57,006 bases of DNA, taken from Deferribacterales bacterium (GTDB taxonomy: Bacteria; Chrysiogenota; Deferribacteres; Deferribacterales; Geovibrionaceae). A program made the translations under genes and the position numbers. The notes under the pieces are model-generated. The model was not told where the DNA came from. It did not search any database and saw only the letters and a program-made list of their open reading frames with translations. The stretch is taken from the NCBI GenBank assembly GCA_050251945.1, contig JBFWLW010000016.1:1-57006 (forward strand). Direction: 5' to 3'. This document shows, piece after piece, positions 2,332 to 21,146 of the stretch (its first letter is position 1; each line of letters opens with the position of its first letter).

Positions 2332-4590
2332 TTGAGGGTTGAATTGAGCTCGGATTTTAAATTGTTCGATTTGTTGGCACATCCTATAGCCGTAACCGGT
2401 TCCGATTCGGAAATAGCATATTCCAACAAAGAGTTTAAAAGGCTTTATGCTGCAGGTAATTTTAGCAATTTCGGACGCGGGGACGATACAAGATCGTTAT
2501 TCTTCTGCACGGACAAGGGCGAAATAAAGTGCTATCTTGCGTCCGTTTCCCATGACGGTGCATACGATATCTGGTCATTTTCTGACGTAACTTCTCTGGT
2601 CAACCGTAAAATAATGGTTGAAACCGCCGCCATTGACGAATCAAAGATCACCGATGAAAACTTGAGAAAGGTCATTGAAAAGAATAAGAGGCTTACTGAC
2701 GTTCTTGAGGCGATGGAATCCGGAGTCATGGTGGAGGGCGAATCAGGCAGTCTTGTGCATCTCAACAACAGCTTTCTCAAAATGGTGTCTCCGCACTTTT
2801 CCGAGCCTTATTCCGATCCGGAAAATGCCGCTTTCTATCACAGACTGCTTGCTGATATGGATCTTTCCGGTATGTACCGCGAAAAAACGGACTTTATACT
2901 TAAAGAAAAACAGGACAGAAGCTATTCCGACGAGTTCACCTCAAAGGACGGTCGTACTTTTGCCCGCATCCATGTGCCTTTGTATATGGACGGCAAACCG
3001 AAAGGACATCTCTGGCGGTTCCGCGATATATCAGTGAAAAAGCAGATGGAAGCGTTTAAAAACGAGCTTGAGGCTATGATAACAGCCATTGAATCAAGCG
3101 TTATGGTGGGGCTTTATCTCGACTATGAAGGGTTCCGATTTGCCAATGAAGGTCTTCTGCATATTCTGGGCGTTGGCAGGGAAGACGTGCTTAAACACGG
3201 AATATCCTATTATCTGGGCGACAGGGTATACGATACCGGCGACCCTGGTGACCATATAATAGCCTACTATTCACCGAAGGGACGCAGAATAAGTGTTCAT
3301 GTTATTTCCGACACAATGAAGATAGCCGGAAAAACAGCGGAAATAATCAGCGTTATAGATATCACAGACAAGGTTCAGCTTCAGAGCAGTCTGAAAAAGA
3401 ACGAGGCGAAGTTCCGCAGTTTCTTTGCCGATAACACGGCTGTGATGCTGGTTTTTGAACCCGACACTATGGCTCTTGTGGATGCGAACAGGGCGGCGTC
3501 AGAATATTACGGATGCTCCATCGAACAGCTTAAACTGAAAAAGATGTGCGACCTGACTGTGCATACAAGCCACGGCGACTGCCTGACCCTTGTGGGGAAC
3601 ATACTTGAAAGCAGGCGCGGGGCGAAAATACCTGTACAGCAGTATACGGCGGGCGGAGCGGTGCGCGATGTGGAGCTTCTGATAACACCCGTGGAGATAG
3701 ACAGCACTGTCTATATGTTCATCATTGTTGAGGACGTTTCACAGCGGTTAAAATATCAGCGCGAACTGGAAGATATCAACAAAAACCTTAAATATATAGT
3801 TGAGGATGAGATAGCAAAACGGCGCAGGAACGAAGAACTTCTGATGGAGAAGATGCGTCTGGCGGAGATAGGCGAGATGATAGGCAGTATAGCCCACCAG
3901 TGGCGGCAGCCGCTGAATACGCTCGCCATTCTTATTCAGGATATTCAGGATGCAAGGGAGTTCGGAGAGCTTACGGGAGATTATATCCGCGACGTGGTGG
4001 CAAACTCCATGCAGCAGATAGATTACATGTCCAAAACTGTGGATGATTTCCGCGATTTCTTCAAACCGTCCAAAACCAAAGAGGTGTTCGACGTTAAGCG
4101 TTCCGTGGAACAGGTGCTTTCAATCGTGCGCGCTCAGCTTATTAACAACAGCATCACCTGCACTGTCGCCTGCCAGTGCGAGAATTCCGGTCAGTCTATA
4201 ATGGATTACGAAAAACTGACGTACTGCGCCGACCACGATATGAGAGTAAAAGGATATCCCAACGAGTTCAAACAGGTGCTTCTGAACCTTATATCAAACT
4301 CCAAGGACGCCATTACCGGAAGACAGGAACGCAGGATAGATATCAGCATCAAACGCTATGGAGAGAAGATACGGCTTGATGTTGAGGATACAGGCGGCGG
4401 AATTTCCTCCGAAATACTCGACAGGATTTTCGATCCGTATTTTACAACGAAAGGCAGTACGGGCGGAACGGGTATCGGTCTTTATATGTCGAAAGGAATA
4501 ATAGAATCCAACATGAACGGCAGCCTCGCCGTTGAGAATACGGATAAAGGCTGCCGTTTCAGCATATTGATGGACAGATTTATTGATTAG
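2332..4590 (+). CDS. Multi-PAS sensor histidine kinase
   Basis: IAHQWRQPL H-box, NLISNSKDA N-box, DTGGGI, FDPYFTTK and GTGIGLY; N-terminal PAS domains; TTG start uncertain. Confidence 0.92.
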   Translation: MRVELSSDFKLFDLLAHPIAVTGSDSEIAYSNKEFKRLYAAGNFSNFGRGDDTRSLFFCTDKGEIKCYLASVSHDGAYDIWSFSDVTSLVNRKIMVETAAIDESKITDENLRKVIEKNKRLTDVLEAMESGVMVEGESGSLVHLNNSFLKMVSPHFSEPYSDPENAAFYHRLLADMDLSGMYREKTDFILKEKQDRSYSDEFTSKDGRTFARIHVPLYMDGKPKGHLWRFRDISVKKQMEAFKNELEAMITAIESSVMVGLYLDYEGFRFANEGLLHILGVGREDVLKHGISYYLGDRVYDTGDPGDHIIAYYSPKGRRISVHVISDTMKIAGKTAEIISVIDITDKVQLQSSLKKNEAKFRSFFADNTAVMLVFEPDTMALVDANRAASEYYGCSIEQLKLKKMCDLTVHTSHGDCLTLVGNILESRRGAKIPVQQYTAGGAVRDVELLITPVEIDSTVYMFIIVEDVSQRLKYQRELEDINKNLKYIVEDEIAKRRRNEELLMEKMRLAEIGEMIGSIAHQWRQPLNTLAILIQDIQDAREFGELTGDYIRDVVANSMQQIDYMSKTVDDFRDFFKPSKTKEVFDVKRSVEQVLSIVRAQLINNSITCTVACQCENSGQSIMDYEKLTYCADHDMRVKGYPNEFKQVLLNLISNSKDAITGRQERRIDISIKRYGEKIRLDVEDTGGGISSEILDRIFDPYFTTKGSTGGTGIGLYMSKGIIESNMNGSLAVENTDKGCRFSILMDRFID

Positions 4591-4808
4591 AGTATCTCGT
4601 CAACTCTGTCGTGGACTCTCGCTATGTCCGCGTGCAGCAGCTCATGGCGGTGTTTGCATTCATTCTTTGCAACGTAGTCCCTCGCAAGTATGACATTGGT
4701 CTTTTCCTGTCCCCTTCTCAGCTCGTTTATCGTGCGCCATATGGGCAGAAGAACCATTGCCGAAAGCCCGCCGAGATTCTGTATTATGTCTGATATGTCC
4801 ATTATCAT
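4587..4808 (-). CDS. Small membrane/coiled-coil phage protein (possibly holin-associated)
   Basis: Hydrophobic N-terminus (LGGLSAMVLLPIW) followed by a coiled coil; ATGA overlap with the upstream gene; last gene of the operon. Confidence 0.6.
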   Translation of the reverse strand: MIMDISDIIQNLGGLSAMVLLPIWRTINELRRGQEKTNVILARDYVAKNECKHRHELLHADIARVHDRVDEIL

Positions 4809-5080
4809 GCGAACACCCCGAATTTTTCAGGTTTTTTAACTTCGCTGTTTTTGCCTGTGCTGTCTGTATCTGTGTACGTCGGCGGATAGATGCGGTCGTA
4901 TATAGCCTTCTTTTCTTCGTCAGCGAAGACTTCTTCATAAGTGCCCAACACTGTTACGCCCTCCGGTTCTGCCTCGCACCTGCAAAGGCACATTCTATCC
5001 GAGCCGCCGGTCTGAGGCGGTGTCACTGTCAATCCTTCAATCTGTTCGTCTGTCTGATATATAATAATGATGTCCGTCAT
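4805..5080 (-). CDS. Hypothetical phage protein (fibre-associated or chaperone-like)
   Basis: 91-aa acidic ORF, ATGA-coupled to the fibre gene. Confidence 0.65.
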   Translation of the reverse strand: MTDIIIIYQTDEQIEGLTVTPPQTGGSDRMCLCRCEAEPEGVTVLGTYEEVFADEEKKAIYDRIYPPTYTDTDSTGKNSEVKKPEKFGVFA

Positions 5081-6510
5081 GCCGCATTTACCTCCTCTTC
5101 TGTCAGCGCGCGATCATATATACACAGGTTTGATATGGTGCCGTTAAGGAATCGCGTTCCAAAAGCTGATCCGATATATATAACCGACGTATACTCATAC
5201 GGGTTCGCATCATTTTTGCTGTCTTTGCGTAAACCGTCTATATAGAAAACTGTTTCGGCTCCGGTATACACGGCACTGTATCTGTGCCTTAAGAGAGTGT
5301 TAATTCCAGATAATGCAGAATACGATGCACCGCCTTTTGCCCCTTGAGAGAAAAATCCTCCACCGTAGAAACCAATCCCATGTCTCGTATAAATGGTGTC
5401 CCCCCCAAGCGCTATCCTGTCTGTGGCAGCCGATGGTTCCCATAACAGCTTTATATCCATCACATAAGCATGCCCTGTTGACTGTTGAAGCTTAACCATA
5501 TTATCAGCGAGAGGAAACGAACAGTTATCAGCCGCTCTTGTTGCCGCCGCCGTTGTTGCCGGTATGTATGATGTTGCGAACGGCATGGCTTCAAGCTGTG
5601 CGCCGAAGATGTAAAGTCCGGATGCTCCGTCGCCTGCGTATGATACAACTGAATTCGATTGAGCCAAAACTAATGATGGCTTGCCTGTGGTTGTGGCTCC
5701 TGCGGTTACGCTTATAGAGCATCTGTACCATCCGTCTGCTATTGGCTTTATTTTAGCGGTTATCCCCGTTCCTGTTGAAACGACTGTTCCTGCTGATAAA
5801 TCAAAATGTCCGTATCTGCCGCTTGTTATGCTTGAGGGAAAATATAATCTGAATTGGTCGCGTTCTGCTTTTTTTGCAAAAACCGACAAGGCGTATATGG
5901 TACCAGCGGTAAACGATATGCTGACGCTTTCGACATAGTGCGATACGGTGCTTGTGTCCTCAGTCAGTTTATCCGCCAGATTGGTTCCGTATGGGTCAGT
6001 GACGACGGTTGTATTTGCAGTTACAGCAGACCCCGATTTCACCCACACCGCGTTATCGAACTGTTCCGAATAGGTGAGCAGATTCGTCGAAGCTCCCTCG
6101 ATGAGCAGCCCGTCGGCTGTGAAGCGCGGTGTGTCGGCGGCGGCGGTTTTAAGCACTCCGTATCTGTCAGTGTATGTTGCTGTAGATGCCCTTGTGAAAG
6201 TGCAGATGCTTTGCCCCTGCGAAGTCAGCAGGTTCTTTTTCAGCGGCAGATGTAATAATGGCGCGGAAAGATTGCCTATTATTCCTGACATTGCTGACTT
6301 TGTCATTTTTGCAGAAAGCTGGGTATCGGTCTGCGTTTTTGTGTAAAAATCGTCCTCCAAACCCTCGATACGTACCTTTAGTGCGGGATCTCCCGATTCG
6401 TCCAGAACCATGTTCAGAACTTCGCCCTCTGTCTTGTGGATACCTCTGAGAACGGCATCCGAACTGTCAAAAACATCGTTCAGAATCTCTTTTACGGTCT
6501 TATAGCTCAT
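5077..6510 (-). CDS. Phage head-spike/fibre protein with C-terminal LamG/ConA-like domain
   Basis: TFTRASTATY...PRF...GLLIEGASTNLL and GAQLEA...ATSYIP.T...TRAAD motifs typical of phage spike/fibre proteins; C-terminal IYIGS...NGTISNLCIYDRALT is LamG-like; GGAGG RBS. Confidence 0.75.
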   Translation of the reverse strand: MSYKTVKEILNDVFDSSDAVLRGIHKTEGEVLNMVLDESGDPALKVRIEGLEDDFYTKTQTDTQLSAKMTKSAMSGIIGNLSAPLLHLPLKKNLLTSQGQSICTFTRASTATYTDRYGVLKTAAADTPRFTADGLLIEGASTNLLTYSEQFDNAVWVKSGSAVTANTTVVTDPYGTNLADKLTEDTSTVSHYVESVSISFTAGTIYALSVFAKKAERDQFRLYFPSSITSGRYGHFDLSAGTVVSTGTGITAKIKPIADGWYRCSISVTAGATTTGKPSLVLAQSNSVVSYAGDGASGLYIFGAQLEAMPFATSYIPATTAAATRAADNCSFPLADNMVKLQQSTGHAYVMDIKLLWEPSAATDRIALGGDTIYTRHGIGFYGGGFFSQGAKGGASYSALSGINTLLRHRYSAVYTGAETVFYIDGLRKDSKNDANPYEYTSVIYIGSAFGTRFLNGTISNLCIYDRALTEEEVNAA

Positions 6511-6522: not shown

Positions 6523-7596
6523 TTATCGTTTCTTTTTATAAATATTTCCGTCAGGCGATACATACAGTCCGGCGGCGAGTTCAATATTCCCGTTTTCGTC
6601 GCAGTTGTAATCTGAAACAGATGTACCGTATCCGTCCGGCGCCCACGATTGAATGAATCTGCCGTATTTAAGGTATTCTCCCTGAGACACAGTGTTCACT
6701 CCGGAATCTGCCGTGAAAGGATTCACCGCGCAAGTGTAGAACCCGCTTATGAAAAAACCTGTATCGGCTGTGTCCTCGCAGTAGAAGCCTGTTGTGTCGT
6801 ACCCGATACATTCACCGTAAACCGGAGAAGACGCTCCCGTGATAAGGGCGTATGCGCTCGCTATCTTTTCGTGTATGCCCAGTGACGAATAGAGATAGAA
6901 GTCAAAATCCACTCTGCCGGATGTCTGAGGCTTCCAGTCGGTGAAGGTGTTTACCTGATAGATCATGAACGCGGCTCCGCTTATCGGGTCAACGTGGGCT
7001 GTTATCACGTTTGAACGCGTGCCGTTGAAAACGCCGGATGTTGTCTCCTCGTTGTATGTTTCATAGATGAACTCGCTGCCGAAATAGTAGCGCGTCAGGC
7101 GGGTGTAGACGTTTGTTGTCTGATGCACCTGAAGGGAGTATATCTTCCCGTTTGTGTCGTCGGGCGCAGGCTGGTTGATGTACGTTGGCGTGCTTACCGC
7201 ACACGTCTTTTTTTTCATCGCTTCATATGCCGTGTTGAAAGCCGCTTTGGGCGAGCGGACAAATTCAGTTCTGTGCAAAAGCCCCGACGACAGGATGAAG
7301 TTATCTGTTTCATAGGCTTCCGCAGGCATCGGGACGAAAGGCCAGAGCCTGTCTTTAAATCCGGTTATGTGGGACGGCACACCCTTATATTGTCTGACGA
7401 CAACTGGATCGTTGACTGAGAAGGCGTATGATTCAGGTCTTGCTTCCACAGATTCGTATTCTATGGGCAGACCGCCGTATACTGCGTTATCCACCGTCAC
7501 TTCCACCGTGTTTGCGGAATGATTTGTTTTTGTTACGCGCCCCTCGGCGTAAGAGATGTTTTCTGTGGGGTCAAGGGCGTTCTGAGAGTAGATCAT
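6523..7596 (-). CDS. Putative phage tail-tip protein
   Basis: 357 aa, beta-rich, with an OB-fold-like N-terminus (GRVT...TVEV...AFSVNDPVVV); coupled within the operon. Confidence 0.6.
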   Translation of the reverse strand: MIYSQNALDPTENISYAEGRVTKTNHSANTVEVTVDNAVYGGLPIEYESVEARPESYAFSVNDPVVVRQYKGVPSHITGFKDRLWPFVPMPAEAYETDNFILSSGLLHRTEFVRSPKAAFNTAYEAMKKKTCAVSTPTYINQPAPDDTNGKIYSLQVHQTTNVYTRLTRYYFGSEFIYETYNEETTSGVFNGTRSNVITAHVDPISGAAFMIYQVNTFTDWKPQTSGRVDFDFYLYSSLGIHEKIASAYALITGASSPVYGECIGYDTTGFYCEDTADTGFFISGFYTCAVNPFTADSGVNTVSQGEYLKYGRFIQSWAPDGYGTSVSDYNCDENGNIELAAGLYVSPDGNIYKKKR

Positions 7597-8570
7597 ACAG
7601 CCACCTGATAGAACATTTCAGAAATTATAAAATCTCCTGATTCGGAAAGAGTTTTTTTGACATTGCCGTCAGATATGTCCGTGTCGGGCAGAAGCGGCAG
7701 ATCAAGATTCTTTGCAATTGCCACGAAACTGCCCACTGCAAGTCTGCATGGTGAGACTGATTTTAACCAGCAGCGTTCGCCGTGATATTCTACACACCAG
7801 CGGAGTTCCTTTTCGTAGAGCCATTCGTCTTTCAGGCTGTGTCCTATTCCCCCTTTTACAGGGAAATATTCGTAGGTATACCCCTTGTCCGGATCGTTTT
7901 TGTCGTTGTACACTTTGCGGCGCACGGTCACACCGCATCCGAGCAGAAGCGCTCCGGTGAAAATATCTGTCTGAAAGCTGTAGGAACCCAGATAGTATTC
8001 TTCCGGCAGATCGTACATCCTGAAAAAAACGGAGACAGTGCGTCCGGGAACCAGAAGTGTGTTTGAAAGAGATGTTGAAAGCGGAATGCACCCGTCAACG
8101 TTGTGGGTGTATTCGGGGAATGTTGAAGTTATCCAGCCTATGTGATTTATTCCGGTTTCGCTGAAACCTGCGGAACTGTAATATGAAACGAAAGCCGTCA
8201 CGCCGCATGTATTTATCACCGGAAGATACGCCGTGATGAAGTCGCCCGCACGCTCCCATGGCGATGTGGTGTCTGCATCCGTATAGTCTGCACAGGGCAG
8301 TGTGAACTCTTTTTCTGTTTTGTCCGTTGGGAGCAGGAACAGATTCACGACGTATTCGCCGCTGTCCTCTTCAATCAGATAAACGTTGACTGAAACGGTC
8401 TCAAATCCGTATGAAAGCCAGCCGGCCACTGGCGGTTCGTCTGTGATGACCGACGTTGTGACATAGGTGGAAACGCACTTGTCCGGATAACACATGCCCG
8501 ACGGGGTGTATTCCGACGGACACAGCCAGACGCCCACGGATGAGTATTCCTCGGTGACGTAGCGTGCCAT
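7593..8570 (-). CDS. Hypothetical phage structural protein
   Basis: 325-aa ORF with overlapping start/stop at both ends. Confidence 0.6.
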   Translation of the reverse strand: MARYVTEEYSSVGVWLCPSEYTPSGMCYPDKCVSTYVTTSVITDEPPVAGWLSYGFETVSVNVYLIEEDSGEYVVNLFLLPTDKTEKEFTLPCADYTDADTTSPWERAGDFITAYLPVINTCGVTAFVSYYSSAGFSETGINHIGWITSTFPEYTHNVDGCIPLSTSLSNTLLVPGRTVSVFFRMYDLPEEYYLGSYSFQTDIFTGALLLGCGVTVRRKVYNDKNDPDKGYTYEYFPVKGGIGHSLKDEWLYEKELRWCVEYHGERCWLKSVSPCRLAVGSFVAIAKNLDLPLLPDTDISDGNVKKTLSESGDFIISEMFYQVAV

Positions 8571-9289
8571 CAGGACACCGTGAACGTATCGTTGCAGATG
8601 TTGTCCGCATCCGTATTTTTATAGCCGTCTTTTTCAACGAGGAGACTGTATGTTCCGCTTTTCATGCTTCCCAGACGCACCCTGCCTTCGCTGTCGCTCT
8701 TTCCGGCATACTTTCCGTTCAGATAGACGTGGGCATCTTTGAGCTTTTTCTTTGTGCATGCGTCCCGAACAGTGAGTATGACCGTTCTGTTGTAGGTTCC
8801 AGTCAGGTCATCCGTGAAGTCCAGTGCATAGATTCCGCTGCGTCCGTCCTTTTCTGCGGATACAAGGCAGAAGACTGAACTGCCGCACGTAACGTCGACT
8901 ATATCGTAAACTGTCTCGTATTCTATTCTCAGAACTGCGGTGGCGTTTTCAGGAAGTATCACTGCGCTTTCCGAAAATACCGGATTGCCCGCCTGCCCGC
9001 CCTGCCAAACGGCGGATATCACCGTGTCCACGGGGAAAGAGGCGGAAGCCTTTTTGCTGTCTTTAAATATTATAAACTCGGTAACGGTCTGTCTGTAATT
9101 CGTGCCGTAAAATGAGGCGCTTCCGTATGTAGCTTTAAGCGTCGGGTTAAGCCCGCCGGGGTAAAGCTTCAGCCTAGCCGTTGTACCTGCCGCAAAGACG
9201 GTGGTGCCGTTGTTCTCTTCCGGTTCGAGAACGAAGCGGAAAATGTCGCTGTCGGATGTTTTTTTGAATGTCAGACTGGTGTCAGCCAT
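8570..9289 (-). CDS. Phage structural protein with C-terminal carboxypeptidase-regulatory/PEGA-like domain
   Basis: C-terminus VRDACTKKKLKDAHVYLNG...GTYSLLVEKDGY; N-terminal domain paralogous to the two upstream genes. Confidence 0.65.
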   Translation of the reverse strand: MADTSLTFKKTSDSDIFRFVLEPEENNGTTVFAAGTTARLKLYPGGLNPTLKATYGSASFYGTNYRQTVTEFIIFKDSKKASASFPVDTVISAVWQGGQAGNPVFSESAVILPENATAVLRIEYETVYDIVDVTCGSSVFCLVSAEKDGRSGIYALDFTDDLTGTYNRTVILTVRDACTKKKLKDAHVYLNGKYAGKSDSEGRVRLGSMKSGTYSLLVEKDGYKNTDADNICNDTFTVS

Positions 9290-9785
9290 TTAAAGCCTCC
9301 GCATAGACGATCACGGGATAGCTGTCTCTGTCCTTTGCCGTGAGGGTTATGCCATAAAGTGCGTATGACGTGCGGTAGCTTACAAGCGCCGCCGAGAACA
9401 ACCCCTGTGAGGGTTTTGGCTCAACTGCACACTGCACCGAGTAGACCCCTTTGCGTGTAACAGCACCCAGACTGCCGCCCATCCATTCATAACTGCTGAC
9501 TGATGTTACGGGTTTGTCCGTGTCCGCAGATGATGAATCCAGAAAGACGGCAGTCTCATCCTCAACGTCTTCCGTACATACACCCATTGATGTCAGCGTG
9601 CCGTCGGATGCGAAAACTGCCAGTTTATCGGGGTGTTCAGCATAAACCCTGAAATACGCGGTTTCCCCGTATGCGAATGAAGTTTTGGTCTTTCCGTACT
9701 CGTCGGTATTTCTGTCAGCATCCTGCGTTATCAGTATTTTTGAGCCTTTGGATGATGTCACGAAACTTATGGTTGCGTCGGTCAT
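9282..9785 (-). CDS. Phage structural protein (paralogous beta domain)
   Basis: Start moved to MTDATISF (ATG 9785, ATGA overlap, GAGG RBS). Confidence 0.65.
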   Translation of the reverse strand: MTDATISFVTSSKGSKILITQDADRNTDEYGKTKTSFAYGETAYFRVYAEHPDKLAVFASDGTLTSMGVCTEDVEDETAVFLDSSSADTDKPVTSVSSYEWMGGSLGAVTRKGVYSVQCAVEPKPSQGLFSAALVSYRTSYALYGITLTAKDRDSYPVIVYAEALNG

Positions 9786-12602: not shown

Positions 12603-13537
12603 TCGAGGGTTATTCTGTTATCGGGTTCGTGGGGGCATCCGGCAGGTACGACCTCTTTCAGCCAGAAACCTTTTGCAGACGGCAGGGTGACGAGCGTAAG
12701 GCTGTTTCCGGCTTCAAATGCACCTGACCATGCTTCCGCCGGAATGGTGAAATAGGGTTTTCCGGTTTTTGAGTTCAGCGGGGCATACTGCGCGGTGGAC
12801 TGACCGGAAGGCAGAGTGCCTGCGTAAAGCCCTGTCGCAGAAAAAGATATGGACGATGTGAACGTCAGCGAAAAGGTGTCGTATTCCGTGCCGCCGTTTG
12901 CAAGCACCACAAGCTCATGATCGAAAGCCCCCGTGAGACTGTTCAGTGATGCGCTTTCAAGGACAGGTTCGAGATCGCCCAGTTCAAGCATCACCCCCGC
13001 ATATGCCGCGTTCGCCTCAAACGAATGGGGAAGCTGACCGACAAGCGATACGGTGGCGGTGTTTACGTTTCTGGAAACCGAAGCTACGCGCATGTTGCAC
13101 GATTTTTCATCATCCCTGATGAGCAGAAGCGCGCCTTCGGGGATGCTGTAATCCGAAGATTTGAACAGCAGAGTGATGCTTTCATCTCCCGCCGTGGCGC
13201 TCTGAGTGAGTTTTCCGCACCCCGTCCATTCGTCGGGCAGTTCAGCCTGAGTGTCCGCCATGTCCGCCTGTGCAATGTAAAATCTGTCCTGACCGTTTCC
13301 GGGAGTGCCGATGCACACACATGCGGAATACGCCGTCTCACCGTTCACGTTTGAGTTTGCTATGAACGCTTTGCGGTATCTGGTCACTCCCGTTTCCCTC
13401 TCCGCAGAGGTTACACGGGGAAAAAGGTTGAATTTCACGCCTGAAACCACGGTGGAGGCAAGGTTCGCTCTGCCGCCGTTATCGTCGGTGTCGGTGATGT
13501 TTACGCTTCTTATTATGCTGATGTCGCTCTGATTCAT
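12587..13537 (-). CDS. Phage tail-tip protein (type found in transposable siphophages)
   Basis: N-terminal SDI...DNGGR...VVSGVKFNLFPRVTSAERETGVTRYRKAF motif recognised from Mu-like siphovirus tail genes. Confidence 0.65.
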   Translation of the reverse strand: MNQSDISIIRSVNITDTDDNGGRANLASTVVSGVKFNLFPRVTSAERETGVTRYRKAFIANSNVNGETAYSACVCIGTPGNGQDRFYIAQADMADTQAELPDEWTGCGKLTQSATAGDESITLLFKSSDYSIPEGALLLIRDDEKSCNMRVASVSRNVNTATVSLVGQLPHSFEANAAYAGVMLELGDLEPVLESASLNSLTGAFDHELVVLANGGTEYDTFSLTFTSSISFSATGLYAGTLPSGQSTAQYAPLNSKTGKPYFTIPAEAWSGAFEAGNSLTLVTLPSAKGFWLKEVVPAGCPHEPDNRITLEWQID

Positions 13538-13538
13538 T

Positions 13539-13907
13539 CTAAACCTCCGAAAGCCTTATTGTGCCGCTGTATACGTCGGCATCCGACTGAACCTGTCTGG
13601 CGTTCAGCGGCTTAAGCTGAACCGCACTGCTGTCGCTTACGAAAACAACCTCCATCTGCCTGCCGTTTATATCTGCGTGAACTGCCGCCGCCGCCGATGC
13701 CACGCGACAGAGGGATAGAACGTCTTCCCGTTTCATGCCGCTCTCTGTGGCGGGGATATATATTTCGATACTGTTGTAAGGTTTGCCCGCGTATACTATT
13801 TCCGCACCTGAAAGGTCGGTTTCGGTGCCGGTCTGTGGCAGTCCGTATGCCGTTTCGTTTGTCCACACCGCCGTTTCCGGCAGTGTTATTCCTGCTATGG
13901 TTATCAT
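13539..13907 (-). CDS. Phage tail protein (distal-tail-like)
   Basis: Start MITIAGITLPETAVWTNE...LSGAEIV...YSGTIRLSEV; this type normally follows the tape measure gene. Confidence 0.6.
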   Translation of the reverse strand: MITIAGITLPETAVWTNETAYGLPQTGTETDLSGAEIVYAGKPYNSIEIYIPATESGMKREDVLSLCRVASAAAAVHADINGRQMEVVFVSDSSAVQLKPLNARQVQSDADVYSGTIRLSEV

Positions 13908-13909: not shown

Positions 13910-14263
13910 TCAGCACCTGTATCCGCACTCGATGACAAAGGTCATGGTGCGTGTGTCGGTTGTTTGTATACTGCTTGAAAGGCTGATCGGGCGTGTAGCA
14001 CCGAGTGCATTGACCGCTGTGTGGAAGGGCGACATATCCGCCCTGCCCACAGAGAGCAGGCGAACGTATATTTTCAGATTATGCTGTGTCACCTGCACTC
14101 CGTTGTCGCTGACGGTTTCAAATCCGGCGTAGGCAACCGCCGCCAGCGGTTCCTTTCCCGTCATCACCTCTGTACTGCCGTCTTTCAGCAGGACACGGGT
14201 AAAAACTCTGCACTCCTCAAGCACCTGCACTGTGTCAAGGGTCAGCTGATCCGCCGTCCTCAT
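13910..14263 (-). CDS. Putative head-tail completion protein (Mu gp37-like position)
   Basis: Start MRTADQ at 14263 overlaps the upstream stop (ATGA); assignment by position only. Confidence 0.55.
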   Translation of the reverse strand: MRTADQLTLDTVQVLEECRVFTRVLLKDGSTEVMTGKEPLAAVAYAGFETVSDNGVQVTQHNLKIYVRLLSVGRADMSPFHTAVNALGATRPISLSSSIQTTDTRTMTFVIECGYRC

Positions 14264-14631
14264 CTGTATCCCTGCCAGTTGCCCCGTCCCGCCTGCGTGT
14301 ATGCCGCCGCCTGCTTCGGAATTTCGCCAGTGGACGACGTTACGGGTGCCAGCGGCGCAAGAAGCTGTGCAGTTTCGGTTTTGTACTGTTCCGCCGTTGT
14401 CCATTCGGCGGCGTAGATGTAAAGTTCCGCCAGAGTGCGCTTTTTCACCGCGAGGCGCAGAACTGCGTCCGATTCGTCATATTCCAGACCGTAGCTGTCC
14501 GCCACCGCCTGAACGTATATGCGGGCATTCTCCAGCGCTTCTTCCGCTACGGAATCGTCACCCTGACATACGGCAAGGTAGTCGTCGTCGCGCATGAGTT
14601 CCTGTATCTCTTCAATGTCGATGAGTTCCAT
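14260..14631 (-). CDS. Mu gp36/DUF1320-like head-tail adaptor
   Basis: Helical acidic protein after the capsid gene (AEEALENARIYV...VLRLAV...LAELY...EQYKTET); GGAG RBS before ATG 14631. Confidence 0.65.
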   Translation of the reverse strand: MELIDIEEIQELMRDDDYLAVCQGDDSVAEEALENARIYVQAVADSYGLEYDESDAVLRLAVKKRTLAELYIYAAEWTTAEQYKTETAQLLAPLAPVTSSTGEIPKQAAAYTQAGRGNWQGYR

Positions 14632-14646: not shown

Positions 14647-14723
14647 GAGATCGCGTCGTTGCTGCGCGCCTTGCGAAGACGACAAACGTCTCTGCAAGGA
14701 ACAACGTGACGACGCAGTCTCAT
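14647..14723. repeat. CGTC-type REP pair (family A) inside the phage operon
   Basis: GAGATCGCGTCG...TTGCGAAGAC-spacer-CGTCTCTGCAAGG...GCAGTCTC inverted pair. Confidence 0.85.
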
Positions 14724-14731
14724 GTTTAATT

Positions 14732-14763: not shown

Positions 14764-15747
14764 TTAAAGCACTGTCGCCCAGCAGATACCTTTTGTGAAA
14801 GGCACTGGCAGAGGCTTGCTCTCCGCGATTATCTCTATGCTGGAAGAACGGGCATCGCGCACCTGCTTAACAAAGAAGGGCATAGCCGTAAGGTTGCTGT
14901 CCAGATCGTCAATGACGCTGTAAACCAGCTCAAACGGGGCATCCGCGGCGAATGCCATGAGCTTGCCGCTGTCAACCACCTTCACCTGAGACCCCGTGGC
15001 AAGGTCTGTGTATGAGCTGTTCATAAGCTCAACGCGAAATCCGGCTATGTTGATTGTCTTGGAATCTATTACAGCCGTGAGGGATGTGTTCCCGATGTCC
15101 TGAACCACCTTTGCCAGCGCCATGAACGCGCTCTGACCTGCCCAGAAACGGATGTCGGAACCGTAATGGCTGTTGTTCTGAATCTGAGCTTCCATGCCGA
15201 TGAGGTCGGCGAGGATATCGTCGAGGCTGATTGAGGACTGGTTCCATGTTTCTTCGGGAGTGTGTGAAAGCGTGGTGCCGAATTCAACTCCGTATGTGGC
15301 AAGTCCGCCGTCCATGTGCATGGGATATGCGATATTTCCTTTAAGTGACTGCGCCGCCATCGCTTCGGTGGATGCTCTGACGATCCTGCGCAGGCGGTCT
15401 ATCTTATTGTTCACAAGGAGCTGGATGCCTGATTCGTCAAGGAGTTTGAGGTTGTTCACATCCACGCCGTTGAGCCTTTCGGAAGGGCGGAAGGGCTGGG
15501 GTTCGATATGGGTTATGCTTCCGTTCTCTTCGTAAACGGGGACGGGGTCGCCGCCTCTGCGTGTTACGGCTATGTTTGTCACCGGCTGCTGCAGATCGGT
15601 TACGGAAACTGTGGGCAGCGGGTGATTGCGTCTTTTCGCTTCGGGGTATACGTTGTCCATTACGGGGGATTTAAGCTCCGGCATGGACGTGAGCGAGCGG
15701 ACTATGGAGTCCGTTGTAAAGTATTTACCGAGATCAAGCTGTATCAT
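14764..15747 (-). CDS. Major capsid protein (lambda gpE-like)
   Basis: 327 aa; RRIVRASTEAMAAQSLKG and IIAESKPLPVP C-terminal motif of Phage_cap_E-type capsids; follows decoration and protease genes. Confidence 0.85.
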   Translation of the reverse strand: MIQLDLGKYFTTDSIVRSLTSMPELKSPVMDNVYPEAKRRNHPLPTVSVTDLQQPVTNIAVTRRGGDPVPVYEENGSITHIEPQPFRPSERLNGVDVNNLKLLDESGIQLLVNNKIDRLRRIVRASTEAMAAQSLKGNIAYPMHMDGGLATYGVEFGTTLSHTPEETWNQSSISLDDILADLIGMEAQIQNNSHYGSDIRFWAGQSAFMALAKVVQDIGNTSLTAVIDSKTINIAGFRVELMNSSYTDLATGSQVKVVDSGKLMAFAADAPFELVYSVIDDLDSNLTAMPFFVKQVRDARSSSIEIIAESKPLPVPFTKGICWATVL

Positions 15748-15756: not shown

Positions 15757-16119
15757 TTAAAATACCCAGATGGGTGCGTTTGTTTCAAGGGACGCAACGT
15801 GCGCCGCGGAAGATGCGGAACCTTTGGTCAGAAGGCTCTTTTTCATCACTGTGCCGTGAACGGCGACGCTTCCTGCCGTGTCTTTTGATGTGTCGATGTC
15901 CTCCGTGCAAACGCCTACGGGCGTATTTGTGCTGTCGGAAGCCGCCGGGTCAAAGCTGACCGCCTTGCCGGATGCGTCAAGGGCGATTATCTCGCCCGCC
16001 TGAACGGTGCCTGCGCCTGATGCAAACTCCATGATGCGGATCACGGCGGGATGTCTGCCGTCTGTTACCGTTTTTCCCGTGATGGTCTGTGTTCCCACCA
16101 CTCCGTTAACTGTTGCCAT
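15757..16119 (-). CDS. Head decoration protein (gpD-like)
   Basis: 120 aa; GTVQAGEII...PVGVCTEDIDTS...VAVHGTV; directly upstream of the capsid gene. Confidence 0.8.
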   Translation of the reverse strand: MATVNGVVGTQTITGKTVTDGRHPAVIRIMEFASGAGTVQAGEIIALDASGKAVSFDPAASDSTNTPVGVCTEDIDTSKDTAGSVAVHGTVMKKSLLTKGSASSAAHVASLETNAPIWVF

Positions 16120-16129: not shown

Positions 16130-16816
16130 TTATATTTTCGAGAATATTGATGCTGCGGGAGCCTTTTCGGGTCTTAACCCGTGTGTTCCCTGTGAAACGG
16201 GGTTCTTTACCCTGCCGAATATCTCTGCAAGGGTATCTGATGCCTGAACGGCGGGCATTTCGCGTTCAAGCCTGTCTGCGAAGCTGATGAGCGCCTGATA
16301 TGCACCGGAGGGGAGTTTACCCGCCGCCGCCTCTTTCAGTCTGTTCAGCTTATGTTCGAGATTCTGGGTTTTGAGCTTTGAAAACTCACTCATTTCGCTG
16401 TCGGAAAAGACAAACCCGCAATTCAGCGGTGAAAAAGTGATTATCTTTGTCCTGTCGCCCATGCTGATTATCTTCAGGTCTTTGATCATGGGCGGGACAG
16501 CGCCGAGGAACGCAACGTGGTGCAAATACAGGCTGTCGTCCTCTCTGCGTGCCGCGCCGATGCTCCAGTTCTTGTATCTGCCCTCGGCAAACGCCTCCGC
16601 CAGCTCCGTGCCAAGCTCTATCTCGCCCAGAAGCACAGCCTCGTCAGCAGATACCTCCACAGCCGTTACCCAGCCGTATGCGGGCATGGAATCGTCAGAT
16701 TCGTGCCCGATGGTCACAGGTACCTGCGACGTAAAATTTTCAGCCATGCTGAGAATATCTTCGGGTGTTATCACAACACCGTTGTGGTTTCCCGCTCTGG
16801 CAAGTTCCAGTTTCAT
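16130..16816 (-). CDS. Mu-like prohead protease/scaffold (gpI-like)
   Basis: ITPEDILSMAENF...PVTIGH...PAYGWV...GRYKNWS...YLHHVAFLGAVPPMIKDL; GGAGG RBS. Confidence 0.85.
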   Translation of the reverse strand: MKLELARAGNHNGVVITPEDILSMAENFTSQVPVTIGHESDDSMPAYGWVTAVEVSADEAVLLGEIELGTELAEAFAEGRYKNWSIGAARREDDSLYLHHVAFLGAVPPMIKDLKIISMGDRTKIITFSPLNCGFVFSDSEMSEFSKLKTQNLEHKLNRLKEAAAGKLPSGAYQALISFADRLEREMPAVQASDTLAEIFGRVKNPVSQGTHGLRPEKAPAASIFSKI

Positions 16817-16850
16817 ATTCCGCCTCCTTCTCTTTTCGGATTGGCAAATA

Positions 16851-16902
16851 ATACAGGAATTGTTTGTGATATATGTTTAAAAATGACAAATAAAATTTGT
16901 AA
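16851..16902. promoter_or_regulatory. Two ACA-N9-TGT operator-like palindromes upstream of the structural operon
   Basis: ATACA-ggaattgtt-TGTGA (16851-16869) and TGACA-aataaaatt-TGTAA (16884-16902); same motif as at 20795-20883. Confidence 0.7.
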
Positions 16903-16967
16903 TAATTCCTCTTTTAATATATTTGAATAGAGGCTATCCTTTAGAAAAAGCGAAGGGAGATGTACTG

Positions 16968-17927
16968 ATGCTTAAAAAGGCTCTGCTGCTGATATCCGTG
17001 CTGATACTGACCGCCTGTGCCGCCGACAATTCCGCCGTCTATCTTGATACCGCGGCGCAGCTTAAAAACATGCAGGATGCCGGTTCGGCTGTAAAAAAAT
17101 ATGAATCAACCGTTAGAAAGAGCGTCCATTCACACTATTATTACGAAGGACTGGGCGACATATATTATGCGTACGGCGAGTACGGAAACGCAGTGAACCA
17201 GTACACCAGTTCACTGAGGAACAAGGGCGCTTCCGCTGTCCATATCAAACGGGGGGATGCATACGTTAAGCTGGGGTTCTACCCTGACGCCGCGTATGAT
17301 TTCTCATCCGCAATAGACTACGGCGGAGAGAACGCTTATATCGCTTATGCAAAGCGGGCGAAGGTATACATTGAACTTGGAAAATACAAGGAAGCTCTGA
17401 AAGATATTGAAAAGGCCCGGAAGCATACGGAGGTTTCCGCCGATATGGACAGAGCGCTGGCGGAGATATATTACAAGACCGCCGACTACAACACTGCAAA
17501 GGTGTACGCTCAACGGGCTATATCCGCAATACCTGACGATGCGGGACTGTATTATCTGAGGGCAAAGCTGTTTTACAAAACGAAGGATGCCAATCAGGCA
17601 ATAGCCGACTATGAAAAGACTGTCGCCCTTAAACCGGACTTTTCGGACGCGAAGAGGGAGCTTGCCATGGTTTATGCGACATGTCCCGTTTCGATATACA
17701 GAAACGGTGAAAAAGCACTTAAGCTGGCTTCTGAACTTTACGATGCACAGGCATCGTCCGATAATGTGCTTGTCCTTGCGGCGGCATATGCGGAAAACGG
17801 GGATTTTGACAAAGCGGCGGAACTTCTTAAAAATGCAGCGGATAAAGAAAAGGATTTTGTTAAGCAGGACGATATGCGTGTGTATCTGCAGGCATATGAA
17901 GAAAAGAGAACCATAAATAGCTGGTAA
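16968..17927 (+). CDS. TPR-repeat lipoprotein
   Basis: Signal peptide with lipobox LTAC; multiple TPR units; start moved to MLKKALL with GGGAG RBS. Confidence 0.85.
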   Translation: MLKKALLLISVLILTACAADNSAVYLDTAAQLKNMQDAGSAVKKYESTVRKSVHSHYYYEGLGDIYYAYGEYGNAVNQYTSSLRNKGASAVHIKRGDAYVKLGFYPDAAYDFSSAIDYGGENAYIAYAKRAKVYIELGKYKEALKDIEKARKHTEVSADMDRALAEIYYKTADYNTAKVYAQRAISAIPDDAGLYYLRAKLFYKTKDANQAIADYEKTVALKPDFSDAKRELAMVYATCPVSIYRNGEKALKLASELYDAQASSDNVLVLAAAYAENGDFDKAAELLKNAADKEKDFVKQDDMRVYLQAYEEKRTINSW

Positions 17928-18067: not shown

Positions 18068-18241
18068 CTTTCAACAGATATTCAACAATTTTGTTGATAA
18101 AAAAAAGCTTGACAGCATAAACCCTTAAAATTCGGGGGATTCTCTTGATTGTGTTCAATATCAGTTATTTGTGGAATTCTGTGGAATTCATGCTGATAAA
18201 TCACGGGTTTCTAACATTAAATTTTCAACAGGTTTTCCACA
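18068..18241. promoter_or_regulatory. Cluster of DnaA-box-like 9-mers
   Basis: One perfect TTTTCCACA (18233) plus seven imperfect variants (about 1-3 mismatches) at 10-13 bp spacing. Confidence 0.5.
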
Positions 18242-20396
18242 TCTTTGATGCAGGCTCCAGCACACCCCCGTATTCATCGTAATGCATTATTATTTCATCG
18301 AACAGATTTTCCCTTTCATGAGTGAAAGATAGAACGACTGAGTATCTTATTTCCGAATTATCCGCACAGAAGTCCCGTTTAGACGGTGTTATCCTGAGAA
18401 CCAGCTCTCCGGGCAGTGCGGCTCCTTTCAGCTTTGTTTCGTAAAGCTTAACAGGGTTCCATTTAAACATCTCCCTGTTCACTTCTTTCTCTTCTGTGCT
18501 TTTTTGCAGAGCCAGCAGATCTTTAGAAGTCAGTATCGCCTTCCATGAACCCCTTTTGTAATAGCCGAGGGAAAGTTCCAGATTTGTGCAGCAGTAATAA
18601 TGAGGAAAATTCAGGTCTGTTCTCGTCTTATAGACAAGGGTCATTTCAATTCTTCCGGCGTTCTTTCCGCACATGGGAGCGGGTACCGGGATTCCGTTCA
18701 CCTCTGTAATACCGCCCTGCCGCACAACGCCTTCATGCAGGTATACAGCGCTGGACGTTATCTCTTCAAAATTTTCATTAGCCTCTGTGATGATGCCGTA
18801 ACCGGTATAAAGATCGGGCGGACGGCGGGAGTGCAGGCGGGTGTAGTGCAATAGCATTGCCTTTGTCATATCAGGGCTTTGAAATACATGTGAATATCTG
18901 TGGAAAATCTTTGCGGCAAGTGCGGTGACCATGGGCACTGCGTGGGATGTTCCGGAATCTTCGGCAAGTTCGTTCCGCGTACCGATGGAGAATACCCCCA
19001 CGGGATAAAGCCTTCCCATCCGTTTTTCGTGTGAACCGCCGTATGCGCACACCTCCGGTTTCACAAACCCGGCGGACGAGGGACCTCTGCGTGTGAAGAG
19101 GGAAGGGGAGTGGTGCGGCTGTACGTTTGTGTCTCTGTGGGTGACGGAACCGACGGTTACGGAATGTACGCTTTCCGCCGGCGAGGTTATCCGGTTGTCG
19201 GACGGGTGTTCTTCCGAAAGTCCGCGCAGTTTTTCATAGTTGCCGCCGGAGATGATGAACAGAACGTCGTAGCGCTCCTGTAATGAGTCAAGAACATGCG
19301 CAGCCGCTGAAAAACAGTTTGGGTCTGCCTGCGTATCCGAGCCCAGTGATATGTTATACACTTTGATTATTTTGTGGTATGTCCGCAGCGTCGCTTCAAG
19401 CCTCTGCTGGAACTCTGCCAGTCCGATGCTTCCCCCCGCCGGAAGTATTTCTGCGTTCAGATAGACGATGCCGCCGAAGCTTTCACCGTCGTTAAGAAGC
19501 CGACCTGTGACGAAAGTACCGTGTTTGGGGTCTTTTTCCGATTCGGTGCAGAAACTTAAGGTATCCATTTCCCATTCGCGCAGATATGAGGAGGGGGATA
19601 TGCCGGAATCCACAATGGCGGCTCTGGGGTATATCTTTTCCGTGTCGCGCATCTGCACACATTCCAGCGGCAGATCGCCATGCCGCACATAATCCTCTTT
19701 CAAAACCAGACAGGAGGCGGGAGACACGGAACGCACAAGACTGTGGGTGGCAATGGTATCCAGTTTAGCCTTTATGTCGGGGATATGCGCCTGAATTATT
19801 CGGTAACCGCCTATTCTTATTATTTTTGAACGATCCGCCGATGCTTCGTTTTTCAGAAAACCAAGAAGGTTTTCTTCGCCCTCGCCGGGGAGAGTGTGGA
19901 TGTATATGCTTTCGTCGGAACTCATTTCCGCAAGCCCTGTTTCAAAAGGATTGCTGAGCGAAATCTTCTCATGAGGCATGAAGGTGTGCATTGTCTCTAT
20001 GTGACTGAAAGAAGCCATAAAGTCCTTTCCGCCGCCGTTAATTACATGGGTGTTCAGTTTTGCCAGCGCCTCTTCGCCGTTTATGCCGAAAACAAGGTCG
20101 GACAGTGAAAGGCTGGCGACCGGTCTGATGCCGGTTGCGGAGAGAAAGTGATACCGGAGTGATTTTGAGAATGAACCCTGTCTGAGGGTCATGATATTGT
20201 ACACAGGCAGAAAGCGGTTGTACTCGAATCTTTTGTAAAATCCGAATCCTGATGCGAGGGAGCGGGCGATGTACTCTCTGTCCGGAAGTCCGCGGCAGGA
20301 CGTTCGCGGTGACCCGCCTCTGACTTTTCTGGGGTTAGGTCTGTGCATGGATCTGGAAAAACGCAGGATGAACGGACAACAGCCGCTGACTGTCAT
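18225..20396 (-). CDS. S8 subtilisin-like serine protease (IetS/Y4bN-like cytoplasmic type)
   Basis: Catalytic D (IVDSGI), H (KHGTFV), oxyanion N (SGGNY) and S (SGTSHAVP); no signal peptide; GGAGG RBS. Confidence 0.88.
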   Translation of the reverse strand: MTVSGCCPFILRFSRSMHRPNPRKVRGGSPRTSCRGLPDREYIARSLASGFGFYKRFEYNRFLPVYNIMTLRQGSFSKSLRYHFLSATGIRPVASLSLSDLVFGINGEEALAKLNTHVINGGGKDFMASFSHIETMHTFMPHEKISLSNPFETGLAEMSSDESIYIHTLPGEGEENLLGFLKNEASADRSKIIRIGGYRIIQAHIPDIKAKLDTIATHSLVRSVSPASCLVLKEDYVRHGDLPLECVQMRDTEKIYPRAAIVDSGISPSSYLREWEMDTLSFCTESEKDPKHGTFVTGRLLNDGESFGGIVYLNAEILPAGGSIGLAEFQQRLEATLRTYHKIIKVYNISLGSDTQADPNCFSAAAHVLDSLQERYDVLFIISGGNYEKLRGLSEEHPSDNRITSPAESVHSVTVGSVTHRDTNVQPHHSPSLFTRRGPSSAGFVKPEVCAYGGSHEKRMGRLYPVGVFSIGTRNELAEDSGTSHAVPMVTALAAKIFHRYSHVFQSPDMTKAMLLHYTRLHSRRPPDLYTGYGIITEANENFEEITSSAVYLHEGVVRQGGITEVNGIPVPAPMCGKNAGRIEMTLVYKTRTDLNFPHYYCCTNLELSLGYYKRGSWKAILTSKDLLALQKSTEEKEVNREMFKWNPVKLYETKLKGAALPGELVLRITPSKRDFCADNSEIRYSVVLSFTHERENLFDEIIMHYDEYGGVLEPASKMWKTC

Positions 20397-20425
20397 AGGG
20401 CCTGTACCTCCCCGTAAAAGACCGG

Positions 20426-20785
20426 TCAGCTTGAAAATTCTTTCAGTAATGCTCTGATGACCGTTTCGATGAATCTTATTTTGTCAAAATCAAGATCAGA
20501 GATATCGTCCAGAAGCTCATGCCATCCGGCGGGGATATCCGGTCCCTGTGCGCTGTTTGCGTGGAGTGCGGCGGTTTTGTAATAGGACAGAGGATGTTCG
20601 TTAAAAAAATATCGGATGTCAATGTTGTATCTCTTTGCTATGACGGCAAGTTTTGCCGCATCAATGTTGCCCGTACATTCGTAGTGGCTTACAACCTGCT
20701 GGGTGACGTTGAGAAGACCTCCCAGCTCTTTCTGATTTATTTTCAGTTCCTTACGAAGTTCTTTCAGTTTATCGCCTATATTCAT
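20426..20785 (-). CDS. XRE-family HTH repressor (CI-like, no S24 domain)
   Basis: IGDKLKELRKELKINQKELGGLLNVTQQVVSHYE; 119 aa. Confidence 0.9.
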   Translation of the reverse strand: MNIGDKLKELRKELKINQKELGGLLNVTQQVVSHYECTGNIDAAKLAVIAKRYNIDIRYFFNEHPLSYYKTAALHANSAQGPDIPAGWHELLDDISDLDFDKIRFIETVIRALLKEFSS

Positions 20786-20794
20786 ATTTCACTT

Positions 20795-20883
20795 ATACAG
20801 ATTATTTGTGTCATGTTCAAACAGAAAATATTTGTTGAAAAATACAGCCATATTGTGTATAAAGATACAAATTATATATGTTT
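20795..20883. promoter_or_regulatory. Four-operator divergent switch with rightward sigma70 promoter
   Basis: AWACA-N9-TGT sites at 20795, 20819, 20842 and 20865; TTGAAA(20835)-N17-TATAAA(20858). Confidence 0.8.
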
Positions 20884-20894
20884 CGGAGGTTGGT

Positions 20895-21146
20895 ATGGCG
20901 GCACCTTTAAAAGTATGGGAAGAGGAGAGCATCACAAAGCAGATGGCGAAAGTGGTGTCGAGGAACCTGACGATATATCAGGTGGCAAAGATGCTTCAGG
21001 TCAGTCATATAACGGTGAGGCGCTGGATAAAAGAAGCTAAGCTCATAGCATGGAACACAAATCTTGAAGGGCATGGGAGATGGCGTGTACCGAAGGAGAG
21101 CCTTGAGGAATTTTTACAGTCCAGAAACTGTATGAACATAGATTAA
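20895..21146 (+). CDS. Excisionase-like HTH_17 DNA-binding protein
   Basis: LTIYQVAKMLQVSHITVRRWIKEAKL...GRWRVPKESLEEF; GGAGG RBS before ATG 20895. Confidence 0.85.
   Translation: MAAPLKVWEEESITKQMAKVVSRNLTIYQVAKMLQVSHITVRRWIKEAKLIAWNTNLEGHGRWRVPKESLEEFLQSRNCMNID

Follow-up and report, generated by a model that had tools for sequence, protein, structure and literature searches.

What is a phage-type head and tail-tip operon that has neither packaging nor replication genes beside it: the remains of a prophage, an empty shell, or part of a particle kept by its host? Such an operon lies in a stretch of 57,006 nucleotides, here called the window, which is contig C16 (JBFWLW010000016.1) of a 3.07 Mb Deferribacterales genome from the family Geovibrionaceae (GCA_050251945.1, G000 in our set). 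A preliminary description of the locus had proposed a host-maintained, inducible particle, either a gene transfer agent (GTA) with split loci or a tail-less capsid without DNA. Our analysis supports a host-maintained, GTA-like particle with split loci, through family-wide synteny, purifying selection, congruence with rpoBC, and orphan terminase/portal and lysis loci. The operon probably belongs to a domesticated, GTA-like system that encodes a stub-tailed particle and was fixed in the ancestor of the family. Its genes occupy up to four chromosomal loci: the head operon, a TerS-TerL-portal module, a lysozyme gene with a holin-like open reading frame (ORF), and a switch formed by an XRE-S8 pair and an HTH_17 gene. 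We consider it highly likely that a DNA-filled particle is made, and lean slightly towards gene transfer as its role.

We compared 16 genomes of the family, G000 and 15 relatives (G001-G015), with host genome sizes of 2.6-3.2 Mb. They fall into four genera, g1 to g4 (11 genomes in g1 and g4 together, four of them in g4, and five in g2 and g3), and include Seleniivibrio, Denitrovibrio and unclassified Deferribacterales. Further Deferribacterales were used for comparison, 47 genomes with a profile of the tail-tip protein o7 and 25 in the capsid search. As the family searches missed rpoC in four of 16 genomes, absences outside G000 are soft. The capsid has a single orthologue in all 15 relatives (62-98% identity) and in none of the 25 other genomes of the order, and the o7 profile matches 16 of 63 genomes, all inside the family. 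Each of the 16 genomes has one copy of the head operon, in a syntenic arrangement. The test of synteny proposed for the surrounding HK/TPR/ftsY locus gave a divided result: operon and TPR gene stay together in all 16 genomes, but the other flanks vary by genus, with a histidine kinase (HK) gene, glnK and amtB on one hand and ftsY on the other adjoining in g1 and partly in g4 and not in g2/g3, and the switch is adjacent in 11 of 16.

Selection and phylogeny were two other checks that had been proposed. Across all particle genes dN/dS is 0.01-0.34 (Nei-Gojobori over eight genome pairs, some of them saturated), with 0.04-0.08 for TerL, 0.03-0.07 for the portal, 0.01-0.07 for the capsid, 0.19-0.27 for the hub and 0.04-0.10 for the lysozyme (four pairs), compared with 0.03-0.06 for ftsY. 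The gene trees follow rpoBC: in the 12 genomes for which the rpoC locus was returned, the head, packaging and tail-tip trees share eight, seven and eight of nine splits with it, respectively, and conflicts are confined to nodes whose support is at most 71% in one of the trees compared. Rooting by prophages unites the 11 sampled genomes in a single clade, within which (g1,g4) separates from (g2,g3).

These results bear directly on the view that the locus is a decaying or recently inserted prophage remnant, which we regard as largely refuted and hardly credible. Lesions in three of 16 genomes would fit it, as would the existence of related Mu-like prophages in G001 and G009, but the system is single-copy in 16 of 16 genomes across four genera, its trees follow rpoBC, the 11 sampled head clusters form a clade apart from the two prophages, its dN/dS values are far below 1 and its separated loci share a promoter motif. 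The two full Mu-like prophages (G001:C10 and G009:C1; L034+L051 and L052+L035), which served as outgroups, carry capsid paralogues of 33-38% identity, and their proteins match only the protease, decoration protein, capsid and portal of the system in G000. An intact Mu-like prophage was also considered as a description of the locus and rejected, as transposase, replication and full morphogenesis genes in one block are not found there. Searches of viral contigs returned two loci, one of them a copy of this chromosomal cluster itself and the other an o7 homologue standing alone (L132:10004-10687, amid non-structural genes on a 62-kb viral contig).

Family scans of the 20-21 window proteins agree with the preliminary description that no terminase, portal, tube, sheath, tape measure, endolysin, integrase or replication family is present in the window. 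The search for orphan genes that it had suggested succeeded for terminase and portal, but not for tube and tape measure. A TerS-TerL-portal module lies at C4:279714-282731 of G000, amid host genes, and occurs in 16 of 16 genomes, at a distance from the capsid gene of ∼13 kb in g4, ∼28-29 kb in three g3 genomes and ∼36 kb in g2, and on separate contigs in g1. One orthologue of the portal, which is of the Portal_Mu family, occurs in each of the 15 relatives (55-93% identity), whereas prophage paralogues reach only 25-32%. In 15 of 16 genomes, TerL has retained Walker A and Walker B as well as the first motif of the nuclease. Its closest relatives in phages (42-50%) come from those of Staphylococcus, Bacillus, Listeria and Faecalibacterium; the Mu-like prophages of G001 and G009 have terminases that show no match to it. 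An N-terminal region of TerS, residues 7-80 (approximately), gives matches to TerS and to DNA-binding PHROGs (E 1e-4 to 0.02), and all 16 genomes have preserved it. Portal and protease are short (366 and 228 aa, compared with about 500 and 293 aa in the prophage paralogues), which may mean a smaller head.

The packaging module also decides against the second form that had been proposed, a tail-less capsid compartment without DNA. It would suit a window from which packaging genes are absent, but TerS, TerL and portal are conserved throughout the family and probably co-regulated with the head operon, and terminator and hub folds are present in the operon, making an empty compartment very improbable.

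The lysis genes were discovered via the promoter motif described below. A lysozyme gene (phrog_7) at C1:111270 is found in all 11 g1/g4 genomes, in varied surroundings, and in ten of these it is followed by a 59-aa holin-like ORF (the lysis unit of G000 spans C1:111270-111908). All five g2/g3 genomes have an endolysin (phrog_894) within the operon, which is missing from the 11 g1/g4 operons, and an orthologue of the orphan lysozyme was not found in these five, where the lone match, in G014, is near a prophage portal. Because the orphan lysozyme occurs in 11 of 11 g1/g4 genomes and the in-operon endolysin in five of five g2/g3 genomes, the two are complementary. The 5' leaders of the lysozyme genes contain a conserved branched hairpin (C1:111187-111272 in G000; L134:1418-1503) that closes just before the ribosome site. 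Its fold z-scores range from −1.3 to −6.1 in eight leaders, the leader of G006 is too short for it, and three loci gave no Rfam match; the hairpin could delay lysis. In total, the particle gene set amounts to about 19 kb, and the packaging and lysis loci are both flanked by host genes.

In the 11 g1/g4 genomes, the head, packaging and lysis loci share a promoter motif, TTAAACATAT-N17-TAnnnT. At the head operon the promoter occupies 16848..16880 on the minus strand, with TTAAACATAT at 16871-16880, a 17 bp spacer and a -10-like box at 16848-16853, and the motif also precedes terS (C4:279678) and lysozyme (C1:111149). This differs from what had been expected, namely that the palindrome ACA-N9-TGT would precede orphan loci; the palindrome is found in none of 16 terS leaders. 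All 11 g1/g4 genomes have TTAAACATAT, with at most one mismatch, before the protease gene as well as before terS, usually followed by a -10-like box after 17 bp. In a non-circular test, a matrix derived from the capsid promoters of six distant genomes ranked the terS promoter of G000 first among 6,146,488 positions; in the reverse test, a matrix trained on terS promoters only placed the capsid promoter of G000 fourth. The lysozyme promoter, third in the motif scan, ranks 21-40 in these cross-tests. All 11 lysozyme leaders have the motif with at most two mismatches, while of three non-orthologous lysozyme loci two are without a match and the third has a weak one. A matrix from 22 sites of eight other genomes gave 31.0 bits for terS, 26.6 for capsid and 26.6 for lysozyme in G000, the next score being 19.4. 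The exact pattern has three matches in G006, precisely the head, packaging and lysis loci, and unrelated extra matches in G001 (two of four) and G011 (three of six). The promoters of genus g3 share a motif of their own, equally far from the -10 box; this pattern was built from the same sites, thus showing genome-wide rarity only, and has no true site in G007. Under the same promoter as the particle genes, two g4 genomes carry a 47-aa ORF (L176:1561-1701 in G011, L167 in G009), presumably ribbon-helix-helix-like and possibly an extra regulator, which was not found in G000.

The fourth locus is the switch. It consists of an XRE-family repressor (20426..20785, minus strand; HTH_3, phrog_8/4/3), an S8 subtilase of the IetS family (18225..20396, minus strand; Peptidase_S8, PADLOC IetS E 2.9e-92), whose gene begins 29 bp after that of XRE, and, divergent from XRE, an 83-aa, Xis/MerR-like HTH_17 protein (20895..21146, plus strand, with its real start at 20895; HTH_17 E 1.3e-12), for which the MerR match is weak (E 0.005). 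All three genes are present in 16 of 16 genomes, as one block that lies beside the operon in 11 and is separate yet intact in five. The catalytic His motif of S8 is kept in the 11 of 11 proteins checked. An IetAS toxin-antitoxin/defence system was considered and rejected: the neighbours of S8 are XRE and the TPR gene, without an adjoining IetA AAA ATPase (the rest of the genome was not searched for IetA).

Between the divergent regulators are four operator-like palindromes of the form ACA-N9-TGT (20797..20881), 23-24 bp apart, and two more are found at the head promoter, one inside the promoter spacer (16853-16867) and one at 16886-16900. The divergent pair, the recurrence of its operator before the capsid operon and the S8 gene in line with the repressor were thus correctly recognized in the preliminary description. 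The bare palindrome occurs 708 times in the genome, with no other run of at least three sites at most 45 bp from each other. A matrix from 33 switch sites of ten other genomes ranks switch sites of the window 1, 2 and 10 in 3.07 Mb, and the sites at the capsid promoter 19 and 24. Across the family, 15 of 16 genomes have the palindrome between the regulators, and 13 have it at the head promoter. Downstream of HTH_17, towards ftsY, the window contains two tandem copies of a ∼130-bp unit (about 21195-21500).

The tail of the system has lost several parts. L130, an intact Mu-like prophage with a non-contractile tail from another taxon (Candidatus Desulfofervidaceae), has the block o6-o7-o9-o10-o11-o12-o13 in the same order, preceded by a tube (phrog_807), a chaperone and a 756-aa tape measure. 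Neither a chaperone nor a tape measure is present in any of the 16 family operons, and the tube is absent from 15, while terminator and hub remain. Only G007 keeps a tube in the operon, directly after the terminator, and this tube protein is listed under Limisalsivibrio; on the rooted tree the pattern requires either that the tube was lost twice or that it was regained once. When G000 was searched in six frames for a tube, with a profile of two sequences, and for the chaperone and tape measure of L130, the only match was a weak one in the C12 prophage. Of the Pfam families, PF10145 scored above its cut-off in G000 only in that same prophage and PF20155 nowhere; most of the checked weak matches bear a chemoreceptor motif. 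For gpF and gpG, there was no match in G000. The genome contains two unrelated, complete-looking prophages (C4, about 71,500-115,000; C12, about 3,000-43,500), one with a lambda-like and one with a contractile tail and each with its own tape measure. Both were rejected as the source of the parts missing from the operon.

The missing parts could of course be encoded elsewhere, so that the particle would be a GTA with a normal tail whose tube and tape measure come from a further, diverged locus or are borrowed from helper prophages. Other functions of the system are scattered, G007 keeps its tube in the operon, tape measures diverge fast, absences outside G000 are soft, and G000 has two prophages with tails of their own. 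Yet the searches for tube, chaperone and tape measure in G000 led only to prophages, no fourth promoter comes near the scores of the three known ones, and G006 has exactly three matches to the pattern. We judge a normal tail to be quite improbable.

The operon comprises 16 open minus-strand ORFs, from 16816 to 4587, each with a single stop. Intergenic gaps range from −16 to +12 bp, save one of 132 bp that contains a REP-like repeat. The 15 intact, coupled genes of the preliminary description are indeed intact and coupled, but their number is 16. REP-like inverted repeats occur at about 14650-14725 of the window (the capsid/o4 gap), at about 21150-21190, and beside the C4 and C1 modules.

The first three genes encode a prohead maturation protease resembling Mu gpI (16130..16816, 228 aa; phrog_976 E 3.8e-22; 16 of 16 genomes), whose orthologues keep the His and Ser motifs, a head decoration protein resembling lambda gpD (15757..16119; HDPD E 1.9e-7, phrog_49) and a major capsid protein of the gpE type (14764..15747; Phage_cap_E E 3.5e-52), which had no match in the phage collection. 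These names and the tail-type labels had been assigned before and are confirmed by the family scans. Two other labels fared less well, resting on position and resemblance. One is 'gp36-like', for o4 (14260..14631, 123 aa): family scans gave no match and a profile comparison with the true gp36 of L130 was negative (probability 0.2%), so that its probable function as head-tail adaptor follows from its conserved post-capsid position in 16 of 16 genomes. The other is 'spike', for o13 (6523..7596), which has an L130 homologue (E 3.9e-18) and no match in PDB searches, and which we take to be a possible central spike. Sequence searches of PDB with alignments of o5, o6, o7 and o13 and with TerL found nothing useful.

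Two proteins were identified from predicted structures. o5 (13910..14263, 117 aa) is, according to its model (pLDDT 87), a tail terminator with the lambda gpU / Mu terminator fold (VIA Z 12.6, rmsd 2.8 and 113 aligned residues to the Mu terminator 9khy; Foldseek match to gpU, E 3.8e-5). A profile comparison with the gene that occupies the gp37 position in L130 was negative (1.9%), and the assignment was made by fold instead. o9 (9782..11413) is modelled with a baseplate-hub fold of the T4 gp27 / Mu gp44 / VgrG-N type at residues 155-543 or thereabouts (Foldseek E 1.8e-12; VIA Z 15-16.5, rmsd about 4.5, 250-270 aligned). o6 (13539..13907, 122 aa; phrog_4408) is probably the distal-tail (Dit-like) ring protein, judging by its size and by its homologues in phage AS1 and prophage L130, which are located after the tape measure. 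In atlas searches, o5 matched terminator families below 0.9 and o6 unnamed viral clusters only. A complex predicted from three copies each of o5 and o6 scored 0.45, compared with 0.18 for the best control; agreement between the runs extends to at least 92% of contacts, with a partner pLDDT of at least 77. Scores of 0.60 or less were obtained for only 18 of 157 solved complexes and for both passing mismatches (2 of 215), and the job was unlike the calibration. We therefore give the prediction little weight, as the score may be due to the likeness of neck rings to solved structures.

The remaining genes form the tail tip. o7 (12587..13537; phrog_6128/9261) is a conserved tail-tip protein homologous to 'tail fiber' genes of AS1 and to one L130 gene. 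A second match to its profile in five genomes was rejected as a particle locus, being a flagellar hook protein: in g2/g3 this 943-aa protein contains an internal domain that is a homologue of the one at the C-terminus of o7 (E 1e-18 to 1e-22; L202:8027-10855 and L203-L206, in G010, G007, G008, G014 and G012), and the hook protein of G000 gave no match. o8 (11415..12602) resembles tail fibres at its N-terminus (phrog_6427, phrog_8469 tail fiber) and is absent in G015. o10 (9282..9785; phrog_24905) and o11 (8570..9289), the latter with a C-terminal PEGA/CarboxypepD_reg-like domain according to family scans, are paralogous tail-tip proteins with L130 homologues, and the tail-tip protein o12 (7593..8570) has an L130 homologue in the same position (E 1.7e-27). 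The receptor-binding or fibre protein o14 (5077..6510; phrog_5939 tail protein, Laminin_G_3) combines a conserved N-terminal anchor of ∼50 aa with a C-terminal part that is exchangeable between lineages (LamG in G000), distant orthologues matching over the first 45-52 aa only. Downstream of the o14 position, G015 has several additional related genes. o15 (4805..5080), a small variable partner of o14 that blastp found in three of 15 relatives, is possibly a fibre chaperone. o16 (4587..4808, 73 aa; phrog_12220, unknown; dN/dS 0.01-0.17), with an N-terminal hydrophobic helix and present in 11 of 11 g1 and g4 genomes, is possibly a holin or lysis accessory protein. The TPR lipoprotein-like gene (16923..17927, plus strand) keeps its divergent position beside the head operon in all 16 genomes, despite the changes in the other flanks, and may belong to the particle system.

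How might such a system work? XRE, bound to the ACA-N9-TGT sites, would repress HTH_17 and the head promoter. A trigger, perhaps and speculatively cleavage of XRE by the IetS-like protease in analogy to other protease/repressor pairs, would free HTH_17, which would then activate the three particle promoters. The 20 bp from TAAACA to the -10 box would leave these promoters silent without an activator, and resemble the long spacers of MerR-type activators. The terminase would fill the capsid with host DNA, because no phage replicon is left, and adaptor and terminator would be capped by a stub of distal-tail ring, hub and fibres. Lysis of the cell would release the particles, whose exchangeable o14 tip might bind kin. 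Uptake of the DNA via ComEC, which mediates it in RcGTA, would be possible: G000 has a ComEC family gene, and such genes are common (10 of 14 control genomes). In its most specific form, which we put forward tentatively and consider doubtful as a whole, the system would be a GTA of independent origin and the first in Deferribacterota: a long-tailed phage would have become a stub-tailed particle by losing its tape measure, chaperone and tube, the terminator would sit on the distal-tail ring, the IetS-type S8 would cleave XRE and so free a MerR-like activator of long-spacer promoters, and the genus of G007 would represent an intermediate.

Several points weigh against a domesticated GTA-like particle. 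The system is known here from its genes alone, and purifying selection by itself leaves a prophage origin possible. The three genomes with lesions are all within g4, i.e. three of its four members: G011 has a transposase-sized insertion in o11 and no o14, G013 has in-frame stops in TerL and S8, and G015 is without o8 and has a stop in o12, although amtB is also split in this genome and an assembly error is possible. The particle system may thus be weakening in g4. Three g4 genomes are without ACA-N9-TGT at the head promoter, and the pairing of regulators with motifs yields candidates only. TerS departs from a common trait of GTAs, the absence of a DNA-binding domain, and its HTH-like N-terminus may bias packaging towards certain sites. 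Finally, DNA delivery would be hard to explain without tube, tape measure and gpG, all of which siphophages use for this purpose.

This difficulty leaves room for a role other than transfer. The same DNA-packing particle could be a decoy, a PBSX-like killer or a means of DNA release by lysis of a subpopulation, possibly set off in response to phages via the IetS-like protease. Besides the missing tail parts, the origin of S8 in a defence-system family and the swapping of the tip protein o14 between lineages are compatible with such a role. Against it, terminase and portal are constrained like housekeeping genes and would be dispensable for a pure killer or decoy, and the three putatively co-regulated units contain no toxin-like cargo gene; moreover, FpGTA packs host DNA without visible tails, according to the available part of its description (PMC12946183). 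We regard a non-transfer role as unlikely. The GTA-like reading, for its part, agrees with several features by which GTAs are recognized: genes for capsid, packaging and tail that derive from phages, several separate loci that are free of replication and integration genes, and vertical inheritance with purifying selection.

Few GTAs are known outside Alphaproteobacteria. Homology searches do not find GTAs, owing to their several origins and scattered genes (PMC11841831, available part). The present case offers a whole predicted kit of head, packaging, tip, lysis and switch, a promoter motif tying the loci together and a candidate activator. Since the family contains named genera, the system can be tested where cultures exist. 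It raises the structural question of how DNA could be delivered by a terminator and a gp27-type hub without tube or tape measure, and provides a natural series for its study: an intact prophage, a tube without tape measure, and no tube. The literature on GTAs, prophages or capsids in conjunction with the host genera or phylum, supplements and most subscription papers aside, contained no description of the system, and the Denitrovibrio genome paper (PMC3035293) makes no mention of phage, prophage or gene transfer in its available part. The concept is not new, as tube-less or tail-less GTA-like gene sets have been published for RcGTA homologues of endosymbionts and for FpGTA; what seems new is the regulon, together with the phage ancestry, the switch and the phylum of the host.

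Among the known systems, Mu-like temperate phages are related to the one described here, L130 (and AS1 for the tail tip) through the tip block and the prophages of G001 and G009 through protease, decoration protein, capsid and portal. In contrast to these phages, the present system is without transposase, gpF, gpG, chaperone and tape measure, and is split and fixed in the chromosome. RcGTA has a capsid and a portal of families other than Phage_cap_E and Portal_Mu. Membership in the RcGTA family (the g1-g15 gene cluster) was rejected, as RcGTA chains match at the level of the fold only and score lower than those of Mu (Z 10.4 at 14% identity; Z 7.8), and tube, chaperone and tape measure are lacking in the operon. 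RcGTA and CcGTA, as far as the available text of PMC11841831 and PMC11150451 goes, share with the present system the core head-tail cluster with scattered loci, vertical inheritance, the lack of replication genes and a lysis module; their dedicated regulators, which coordinate separated loci, have candidate counterparts here. The differences lie in a separate phage ancestry (gpE-type capsid, gpD decoration, Portal_Mu, a distinct TerL), the absence here of tube (15 of 16) and tape measure, the XRE/IetS-like/HTH_17 switch, and the HTH-like end of TerS, known GTA TerS proteins being without a DNA-binding domain (PMC11841831, available part). FpGTA of Faecalibacterium prausnitzii resembles our system in having at least two distant operons, no identifiable tails, near-ubiquity in its taxon and a host outside Alphaproteobacteria. 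It is described as podovirus-like, with a TerS that has no DNA-binding domain (PMC12946183, available part), whereas the system described here has long-tail parts (terminator, gp27-type hub) from which the shaft was deleted, and belongs to a Gram-negative phylum. A parallel to its reduction is offered by the GTA clusters of Rickettsiales and Holosporaceae endosymbionts, in which, in the available part of PMC9254644, head and portal are likewise under purifying selection, the tube and further tail parts are missing and the tail genes are less constrained than those of the head. Those clusters are RcGTA homologues in reduced symbiont genomes; in contrast, the present system, in hosts with genomes of 2.6-3.2 Mb, has kept a ten-gene tail tip, with dN/dS at or below 0.34, together with lysis genes and a switch.

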